A DNA stretch of 64,000 nucleotides from Acidimicrobiia bacterium (GCA_965220995.1 OZ244856.1:97407-161406), one strand, 5' to 3'; shown: positions 36,501-37,688, numbered from the stretch's first letter. Notes: generated from the sequence alone by a model not told the origin. Made by a program: numbers and translations.

Positions 36501-37688
36501 AGGCTGAAGTTGATTGACGCTTTTCCCGCCCGGATACCCAGGAAGCAAATCCGACAGTTCGACCGACTTGTGGGGAAGGCTCTCCGTCACTCCGATGGCG
36601 CGGAGCTGCTGGCTATGGCCAAGAAGAGGCTGGCTCTGAAGAGTCTCAATGTCGACCAGAGGATCAGATGGATAACCGTGGTGGACATGTTGTCCACAGA
36701 ACCGGACGGGCAACAACTGAAAGACTATGTGGTCGCTGGCGATGAGAGACGCGTCAGGCACCTGGCGGAGTTTCTGAACAATTCTCTCGAGCAAACCGGC
36801 CGTCACCCGAAGATATCCGGTTACTGGAACGCGGAGCTGTTGGCCAACCTGGTGCGGATCCTGGGTTCCTCCTATCGGCCGCGGGTACCGGAGGGACTGG
36901 TCACGCTGGAAATCGCCATGTCCGAATTCATCAGTGCCATGATCAGGCATCTGAGCTCAATGGAGGATGCCAAGACCCGCCGAGAACTGTCGGATCTGGT
37001 GGAAGATCCGCAACTCGCACGGTGGCGAAATCAATTGCTGTGGGCACAGGAAACCCAAAGGGCTGTGTACCGGGACGCCTCCTTCAGCCATCCGGGAGTC
37101 GAAGAGGTCCAACGTACTCTCGGTAATCGAGAACCGGCGAACCCGGCCGACCTGGCCGCTCTACTTTGCGATCACTTTGGGACGATCTCGGAACACATTC
37201 GCGGAGACAGCGCCAACCTATGGCGTCAATTCTGGAACGAAGATTCCCATGGACGTCCCACCGAGGGCAAGCCGGAGGACTCATGTCGCGATGTCCTGCT
37301 CGAAGCCCTAAGGCAACGGCTTCCCTCCAGAATCGATGTGGCTCCGGAGGGCCGATATGCCGGAGGAAAAAGATCCGACATCCGGGCGACCTTCAACGGA
37401 TTCAATGTGCCGGTCGAAATCAAGAAGAACTCTCATCGGCAACTGTGGAGTGCCCTGCGCAACCAACTGATCAACCGATATACCACCGATCCGTCCACTT
37501 CCGGATGCGGGATCTTCCTCGTCCTGTGGTTCGGCGCCGACCGGACCACGCCCCCGCCCTCCAGCCCGCGGCCCACAACCCCTCAGGAGTTACGTCGACA
37601 CCTCGAAAGCCAACTTGAACCCGACGAAACCCGCAAGATATCGGTGATTGCGATTGATGTCACCAAACCTGGTGACATCTCACCATAG
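33537..37688 (+). CDS. Giant (1383 aa) STAND protein: N-terminal NACHT NTPase, long helical middle, putative C-terminal PD-(D/E)xK nuclease-like domain
   Basis: Walker A 'LLGDPGAGKTT'. The NACHT-type Walker B 'TLFIDGLDEV' sits about 50 aa downstream. The C-terminal 'DVLLEALRQRL...RIDVAPEG..RSDIRATFNGFNVPVEIKK' fits an E / D / ExK nuclease motif. Lower GC than the flanking DNA. Confidence 0.7.
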   Translation: MRTLVGRVCTEVHTNGWSDPLRGESRPLSGFRSRPALVLLGDPGAGKTTEFKQERRALGESAEYIPARDFIALDIDSHPEWREKTLFIDGLDEVRAGVKDSRVPLDIIRRRLDRLRPRGFRISCREADWLGGNDREKLALVAPADGGVTVVHLEPLDEMSVKEILGSVLSGDVDQFLEESRHRGIWPLLKNPLTLQLVVDSTRNGEGWPRSRRETFAMACRGLATEQNLEHKIAAPVPPIGVRKATGYLCALALLADIEGYSLLGEDSPSFIDLDQVSEGTEIAIEHLKGALATKLFSAEGEGLFRPVHRQVAEFLGGRYLAELVEEGLPAQRVTSLMTSPGDGRVVTPLRGLSAWLATHSPEARTLLIDADPVGVGLYGDIRGMTKTDKTHLLRSLAALAAKEPLSGPSPADTRTAPGKYRAWTFRSLVFRDMIPVIDDLLNIQRPGAPDDRVIEFLAGILEHADRDLESLTTLAPSLCAIVQNRDRSPWVRRDALDAYLNIAPATEMRTQRLIGLLEETQATTLADPTDEIRGTLLRFLYPDKVSPNRVWKFAASRNRKNLVGRFWIFWNRTLFEKSSGPQLGELLDALCEDTTDIVQSLEESRLEDLPPRLLARALDSIADDLDTDRLYNWLAATNHARIRNESGRRQGVDDIRAWLEARPHIQKEIILKRLEPGSPDKHLAVHSISLGTFLYRSRPPAELGRWFLDQAIDLAGTRPALSRKLLRNAYHALGDPRISEGLTLDLMQERLREHARLAQELDELHRQRQSLLSSSPEKDWQQQIDQRRERQRAKRKREREEWADLLRSQEAELRNNTFSPAYLHTLALAYFGEFPDNERGTPYERVREFIGGDPQLADAVMVALRGALWRDDLPGVDETISLHSQKRLPFLAYAVQASMHLLATGPEPAFALESARKEQALTLYYCFPLGREETRECRDMWLRQDPDLVLDTLHRCAVAALRNGEEDLPAGEALDRFSGYDSLVNEARLKLIDAFPARIPRKQIRQFDRLVGKALRHSDGAELLAMAKKRLALKSLNVDQRIRWITVVDMLSTEPDGQQLKDYVVAGDERRVRHLAEFLNNSLEQTGRHPKISGYWNAELLANLVRILGSSYRPRVPEGLVTLEIAMSEFISAMIRHLSSMEDAKTRRELSDLVEDPQLARWRNQLLWAQETQRAVYRDASFSHPGVEEVQRTLGNREPANPADLAALLCDHFGTISEHIRGDSANLWRQFWNEDSHGRPTEGKPEDSCRDVLLEALRQRLPSRIDVAPEGRYAGGKRSDIRATFNGFNVPVEIKKNSHRQLWSALRNQLINRYTTDPSTSGCGIFLVLWFGADRTTPPPSSPRPTTPQELRRHLESQLEPDETRKISVIAIDVTKPGDISP

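Follow-up and report, generated by a model that had tools for sequence, protein, structure and literature searches.

A stretch of 64,000 nucleotides from an Acidimicrobiia bacterium (GCA_965220995.1 OZ244856.1:97407-161406), termed the window hereafter, harbors a gene for a protein of 1383 amino acids, the C-terminal segment of which is the subject of this analysis. With a probability of roughly 0.75, this segment serves as the effector domain in an NLR-type anti-phage receptor of bacteria, which consists of one chain and is affiliated to the Erebus/Hypnos/Avs10 family. The original prediction concerned the stretch 37230..37688, which corresponds to residues 1232-1383 together with the stop codon, and proposed a PD-(D/E)xK nuclease at the "wrong" end of a NACHT protein, implying an inverted order of NTPase, sensor and effector. 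The nuclease-domain reading is supported at the level of predicted fold and residue conservation, and the inverted order is real, because the D and ExK positions are invariant over hundreds of homologs. The position is no anomaly, since all Erebus/Hypnos/Avs10 proteins are built in this fixed way.

Modeling of residues 1176-1383 by AlphaFold2 with an alignment of 32 sequences gave a predicted template modelling score of 0.83 and a mean predicted local distance difference test score of 84.3. The model consists of helix alpha1 (1247-1261), a strand (1267-1274), a second strand bearing D1281 (1278-1286), a third bearing E1294 and K1296 (1289-1297), a helix bearing Q1310 and Y1315 (1303-1315), a strand (1325-1331), a helix (1349-1357) and a final strand (1368-1374). 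This restriction-endonuclease-like succession contains the core alpha-beta-beta-beta-alpha-beta fold of the PD-(D/E)xK superfamily, and no sign of a non-nuclease fold was seen. The active-site layout of the superfamily is also recognizable: D1281 sits on beta2, E1294-x-K1296 sits on beta3, and the acidic residue that alpha1 usually bears is E1247, with which this helix begins. Comparison of the domain with the PDB by Foldseek retrieved PD-(D/E)xK nucleases as all of its top matches, but none of them had E <= 1e-3. Its sole match in PADLOC was a weak one to the LmuA model (4.7e-6), and judged by sequence, the domain belongs to none of the named PD-(D/E)xK subfamilies (Cap4, Mrr, NucS, RecB/Cas4 and the others in Pfam).

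Conservation was assessed in 118 full-length homologs, which share 45-78% identity with the protein, and in a hidden Markov model (HMM) alignment of 148 representatives of 50%-identity clusters, which comprises 149 sequences with the query. D1281, E1294 and K1296 are retained in every sequence of both sets (118/118 and 149/149), and E1247 and Q1310 in all 149 of the second, while R1251, E1271, Q1310, Y1315 and G1325 are likewise 118/118 or nearly invariant among the homologs. The three strings named in the original prediction are indeed present, namely DVLLEALRQRL (1252-1262), RSDIRAT (with D1281) and VEIKK (with E1294 and K1296), and the variation at the D and ExK positions that it had named as fatal to itself did not appear. 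Its helix glutamate has to be replaced, since E1256 is variable (E in 48 of the 118) and the invariant acidic residue is E1247, located at the N-terminal end of the same helix. E1247, D1281, E1294 and K1296 are accordingly proposed here as the predicted catalytic residues, and Q1310 and Y1315 may participate in catalysis or DNA binding. The same catalytic residues are kept in three proteobacterial plasmid homologs of only about 28-33% identity; the beta3 motif of distant homologs reads VEVKR, IEIKR or IEAKR, and a strict regular expression spanning the whole motif misses 12 of 80 loci owing to spacing differences.

The C-terminal domain is also the most conserved part of the chain, as its mean column homogeneity amounts to 0.61-0.64, compared with 0.59 for the NTPase and 0.46 for the region between them, a profile that fits putative enzymatic ends held constant around a diversifying sensor. 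When a profile of the last 208 residues was searched against 1.84 billion cluster representatives, 3187 proteins were found at E <= 1e-3, of which 1094 reached E <= 1e-30, and the match to the nuclease domain sits at the C-terminal end in all of the 150 best of the 3187 representative clusters. The order NTPase-sensor-effector is hence no oddity of a single gene, as the same design is kept throughout a family that comprises at least 3187 clusters at 50% identity. A homology search with the entire protein returned 2413 relatives, and those listed are nearly all full-length, with about 1330-1450 residues.

The opposite end of the protein carries the NTPase. The P-loop GDPGAGKT occupies residues 41-48, about 40 residues into the chain and so near the N-terminus, as the original prediction had stated; in the 118 homologs, G44 and G46 are invariant and conservation of the other P-loop residues is 96% or higher. 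The N-terminus itself is aligned and conserved among homologs (M1, R7, C9). The module displays the NLR-like architecture of nucleotide-binding, helical and winged-helix domains, and the title of the NCBIfam family that matches the protein is "NACHT domain-containing". The NACHT Walker B signature has been defined as D[GAS]hDE (Kibby et al., bioRxiv 10.1101/2022.07.19.500537), and the label is justified here because the invariant D89-G-L-D-E93 fits that definition. Only about 35 residues precede the P-loop, so that no N-terminal effector domain fits ahead of the NTPase. The short stretch of residues 1-38 (33537..33650) is conserved, with the consensus "V.RTCTEI", and folds in the AlphaFold2 model into a pair of beta-strands that pack against the NACHT module; it may be a NACHT N-terminal signature and not a separate domain.

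Between the two ends lie about 830 residues (406-1240), fewer than the approximately 1000 of the original prediction. This middle region consists of 51% A/L/E/R/K/Q/M and 10% G/P, and it is presumably helical, judging from this composition and from the helical ends of two models. Its presumed role as the sensor is taken from the family, as TPR-like sensors that bind the major capsid protein have been reported for Avs10 (Lee et al., PMC12803255). Homologs of the protein carry a precomputed weak match to Pfam PF28130 (DUF8371).

The family placement is derived from NCBIfam, where NF058535 (antiphage_EruA) matches the protein with an E value of 3.7e-246 and 820.5 bits, aligning residues 27-1376 with positions 17-1318 of a profile of 1318. 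The second match is NF058534 (antiphage_HyoA, E 3e-46), in which the C-terminal domain is included. The C-terminal 208 residues alone match the last 197 positions of the EruA profile (2.3e-68) and positions 1247-1429 of the 1430 in the HyoA profile (7.2e-17). Plasmid-borne homologs from Pantoea, Vibrio and Ralstonia, in which the catalytic residues are identical, score 772-792 bits against the same EruA model. Erebus, Hypnos and bNACHT64 have been grouped under the name Avs10, for which the HK97-fold major capsid protein is the reported activator, and mutation or deletion of the effector domain abolished cell death in all families tested (Lee et al., PMC12803255; the grouping also in the April 2026 version). 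The 1383-residue protein is described as a member of a known and experimentally validated defence family, the layout of which has already been described. It resembles Erebus, Hypnos and Avs10 in its end-to-end homology to EruA, its partial homology to HyoA, its length class of about 1330-1450 residues and its succession of NACHT module, long sensor and C-terminal PD-(D/E)xK domain. It differs in originating from an Acidimicrobiia-type lineage known from metagenome-assembled genomes (MAGs) instead of Proteobacteria, and in being preceded, within its clade, by a translationally coupled gene for an AAA_14-DUF4143 ATPase, which is lacking in the six proteobacterial homologs examined.

The canonical Avs1-4 and bNACHT proteins likewise unite a STAND/NACHT NTPase and a nuclease of the PD-(D/E)xK fold with a large helical sensor in one chain, and they share with it the presumed logic by which ligand-induced oligomerization activates the nuclease. 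Their nuclease effector is N-terminal, as in SeAvs3 and SeAvs7 with Cap4 and in bNACHT25 with an Mrr-like restriction endonuclease, and the canonical tripartite layout of N-terminal effector, central NTPase and C-terminal sensor differs from that of the present protein, which has only about 35 residues ahead of its P-loop and its nuclease domain in the last 140 residues. C-terminal effectors form a minority class among bacterial NACHT proteins and have been predicted to occupy the same spatial position as N-terminal ones (Kibby et al., bioRxiv 10.1101/2022.07.19.500537). The present protein agrees with that class in the position of its effector, and here the arrangement is fixed family-wide (at least 3187 clusters). 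The supposedly wrong position is thus a documented minority layout among bacterial NLRs and the norm within the Erebus/Hypnos/Avs10 family, and by analogy the protein would work like an Avs with its effector moved to the opposite end.

On the model of the characterized Avs proteins, the following course of events may be envisaged. The sensor in the middle region would recognize some conserved protein of the phage (by analogy with Avs10, this is probably the major capsid protein of the HK97 fold), and its binding would release autoinhibition. The nucleotide-bound NACHT modules would then oligomerize, so that the nuclease domains at the C-termini meet and form an active DNase; this would degrade DNA and abort the infection. 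Domain order, folds, residue conservation and family relationship emerge from the sequence and model analysis; nuclease activity, trigger and activation by oligomerization are extrapolated from the characterized Avs proteins, which counts against a firm assignment.

Several other observations also weigh against assigning the C-terminal segment as the effector of an Erebus-type receptor. The 820.5 bits stay below the equivalog cut-off of NF058535, a whole-protein score of 1000 bits, and for that reason the protein is termed EruA-like and not called an ortholog, its function being transferred from relatives instead of orthologs. The Pfam NACHT model does not match the protein even at E <= 10, for which the N-terminal module is too divergent, and Pfam-A scans of the whole protein, of its thirds and of two homologs failed to detect any family of NACHT domains, repeats or nucleases. 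The C-terminal 200 residues lack a Pfam-A match at E <= 1, and the last 495 residues gave only noise at E <= 10. Sequence-profile searches of the PDB yielded only noise with the N-terminal alignment and likewise with the C-terminal alignment, for which no solved structure was found. Moreover, the neighbours of the two genes in the window encode amidohydrolases, an aminotransferase, dehydrogenases and two S-layer-homology (SLH) proteins, and form no defence island. Finally, the partner ATPase has a conserved D...ExK of its own and could be an alternative or additional effector.

Table 1. Coordinates in the window of the two cassette genes and of the domains and motifs of the 1383-residue protein
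Feature	Residues	Coordinates	Strand	Remarks
AAA_14 + DUF4143 ATPase gene, directly upstream of the receptor gene	420 residues	32278..33540	+	Pfam AAA_14 7.6e-19, DUF4143 4e-25
EruA-like (Erebus/Avs10-type) NACHT protein gene	1383 residues	33537..37688	+	4152-nt open reading frame; GTG start; end coordinate includes the stop codon
NACHT NTPase module (nucleotide-binding, helical and winged-helix subdomains)	1-405	33537..34751	+	
Walker A / P-loop GDPGAGKT	41-48	33657..33680	+	G44 and G46 invariant, K47 0.99 in 118 homologs
Walker B and NACHT signature TLFIDGLDE (D89-G-L-D92-E93)	85-93	33789..33815	+	D89, G90, L91, D92 and E93 all 100% conserved
Variable middle region, presumed helical-repeat sensor	406-1240	34752..37256	+	least conserved part; helix-rich composition
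PD-(D/E)xK (restriction-endonuclease-fold) domain, predicted	1241-1383	37257..37685	+	
Invariant Glu at alpha1 start (KPEDSCRD)	E1247	37275..37277	+	118/118 and 149/149
Predicted catalytic Asp on beta2 (RSDIRAT)	D1281	37377..37379	+	118/118 and 149/149; kept in Pantoea, Vibrio and Ralstonia homologs
(D/E)xK of beta3 (PVEIKK)	E1294-I-K1296	37416..37424	+	E and K 118/118 and 149/149
Family-specific motif in the helix after beta3 (QLINRY)	Q1310...Y1315	37464..37481	+	Q 149/149, Y 148/149

The stop codon of the ATPase gene overlaps the GTG start of the receptor gene by 4 nt (GTGA). In 81 of 84 related loci, an ATPase gene with 54-87% identity ends at the start of the receptor gene; the overlap could be measured in 78 loci, and precisely 4 nt are shared in 64 of them. 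A context look-up of three homologs with 46-55% identity revealed the same gene pair and the same overlap in unrelated surroundings. The product matches the PDC-S01 model PDLC04791 of PADLOC over its full length (E 2.1e-152), a candidate system which, from its label, we presume to have been conceived as stand-alone; here the gene for this COG1373-type ATPase shares an operon with the gene of an NLR-type receptor, and the two are inherited together. Several metagenomic surveys of defence systems have reported PDC-S01. The ATPase retains Walker A, Walker B and the motif D357...E370-x-K372, and it also gave weak matches to YraN-type PD-(D/E)xK models. The median pairwise identity is 0.61 for the ATPase versus 0.41 for the receptor, and over 69 loci the identities between ATPases rise with those between the receptors (r 0.79; Mantel 0/999), a correlation given little weight because shared ancestry also predicts it. 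A kinship between the receptor nuclease domain and the DUF4143 C-terminus of the ATPase was considered and rejected, as hhalign gave a probability of 0.3 and only the D...ExK stretch aligned.

The ATPase probably acts together with the receptor. Six proteobacterial plasmid homologs of the receptor were examined, and none of them has an ATPase partner gene; an "ATP-binding protein" upstream of the Burkholderia homolog turned out to be Schlafen/AlbA_2 plus HATPase_c_4, not DUF4143. The coupled ATPase being conserved here and lacking there, the clade can be regarded as having a variant with two genes of a system that otherwise consists of one, and this pairing is the only feature beyond what was found described and looks new. 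A further step, according to which the Erebus-like NLR is an obligate two-component system with the PDC-S01 ATPase as its required helper, be it co-sensor, loader, regulator or second nuclease, is put forward tentatively and appears possible, though rather doubtful.

The same pairing raises the question of which protein kills. It might be supposed that the C-terminal PD-(D/E)xK domain is a DNA-binding, oligomerization or regulatory module and that the co-translated AAA_14-DUF4143 ATPase is the killing effector, for which one could invoke the near-constant partnership with its 4-nt overlap, the greater conservation of the partner relative to the receptor, its retained Walker and D...ExK residues with their YraN-type resemblance, and its membership in a defence candidate family. 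We consider this unlikely. The six proteobacterial EruA-like homologs keep the C-terminal domain and its invariant residues without any partner gene, and the C-terminal nuclease is therefore their only candidate effector. Furthermore, an inactive scaffold is unlikely to hold E1247, D1281, E1294 and K1296 at 100% over 148 representatives, and a nuclease role for DUF4143 has no support.

The genomic distribution speaks for the assignment of the C-terminal domain as effector of an anti-phage receptor. The cassette of ATPase and receptor genes was found in unrelated contexts, and its hosts comprise Acidimicrobiia, Vicinamibacterales, Latescibacteria, Chloroflexota, Opitutales and MAGs of Gammaproteobacteria, with many sponge symbionts among them. 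The near relatives are overwhelmingly MAGs associated with marine sponges, including Ca. Spongiisocius, Poriferisocius, Poriferisodalis, Aldehydirespirator and Porisulfidus, and since at least five phyla are represented among the sponge-associated relatives, horizontal spread within that habitat is implied. The closest relative of the window receptor is encoded in an Acidimicrobiia MAG (L005) and is 86% identical in the C-terminal domain. The proteobacterial homologs examined in detail are all plasmid-borne, and several adjoin integrases, TIR, RES or toxin-antitoxin genes. In the window, the GC content drops from about 0.64 to 0.56-0.61 over 32-44 kb, which is compatible with acquired DNA, and the window contains no tRNA gene and no second copy of either cassette gene, nor was any further defence gene detected.

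Two separate cassettes per genome were encountered in CBDEFI010000005.1 (L009/L026), CBDBQD010000002.1 (L025/L045), OZ244832.1 (L019/L047) and MAG jk18x27bins.72 (L022/L029), and diversifying immune receptors typically expand into paralogs in this way. At six loci (L006, L009, L033, L045, L051 and L058), the receptor is split or truncated, with no intact open reading frame of more than 1200 residues, and at L058 the ATPase gene abuts a receptor copy that starts near residue 765; pseudogenes, frameshifts in the assemblies or a shorter form of the receptor could account for these loci.

The two genes might alternatively constitute a non-immune housekeeping or mobile-element module of sponge-symbiont genomes, such as an NTPase-driven DNA repair or processing system or an addiction cassette, whose resemblance to Erebus would be confined to shared domains. 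Its metabolic and S-layer neighbourhood with no other defence gene detected nearby, the EruA score below the equivalog cut-off, and the great abundance of the family in sponge-associated MAGs, with two copies in some genomes, would all suit such a module. This explanation is nevertheless quite improbable, for the EruA match runs from end to end instead of domain by domain, the window protein scores at least as high as the plasmid homologs that lie in defence or mobile contexts, and the partner is itself a defence candidate, while variable flanks, spread across phyla, a diversifying middle and paralogs within a genome are the usual signatures of immune receptors.

The last alternative, in which the C-terminal domain is an active nuclease on RNA or on a specific structure (tRNA or phage genome ends) and causes growth arrest without bulk DNA degradation, may draw on fold neighbours such as Can2 (which cleaves DNA and RNA) and CdiA-CT toxins (tRNases or DNases), on viral cap-snatching endonucleases lower in the Foldseek list and on the family-specific Q-x4-Y motif, yet it is hardly credible, given that most of the top structural neighbours are double-stranded DNA endonucleases (BamHI, OkrAI, BstYI, BglII, LlaBIII and NucC) and that characterized nuclease-bearing Avs proteins degrade double-stranded DNA (Avs7).

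Downstream of the cassette, the two SLH genes are convergent (38316..40508 on the plus strand and 40586..42859 on the minus strand) and encode proteins of 730 and 757 residues, in both of which the best Pfam SLH stretch falls at the same residues, 121-164. The pair is situated in the stretch of lowest GC content in the window (0.56-0.57 versus about 0.64). Just downstream of the receptor gene and on the opposite strand, an open reading frame of 107 residues (37775..38098, minus strand) contains about 2.3 tandem copies of the 33-bp unit cagtYggtccattcgaccgttgaggctcccttc (about 37920..37995), which give rise to repeats of 11 residues; no family match was obtained for it.

The identification of the probable C-terminal effector is of value mostly for annotation, as a "hypothetical" giant can be labelled as a NACHT receptor of the Erebus/Avs10 type whose effector, of the PD-(D/E)xK kind, is C-terminal. 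DUF4143 ATPases are widespread and, to our knowledge, uncharacterized, and if the ATPase works with the receptor, the cassette would be a tractable system for studying what these ATPases do and how bacterial NLRs signal with the aid of a helper, and would tell more about immunity in the lineages of sponge symbionts. Should the obligate two-component reading be true, the cassette would be a bacterial counterpart of sensor/helper NLR pairs and would provide the first functional context for the widespread orphan COG1373/DUF4143 ATPases.

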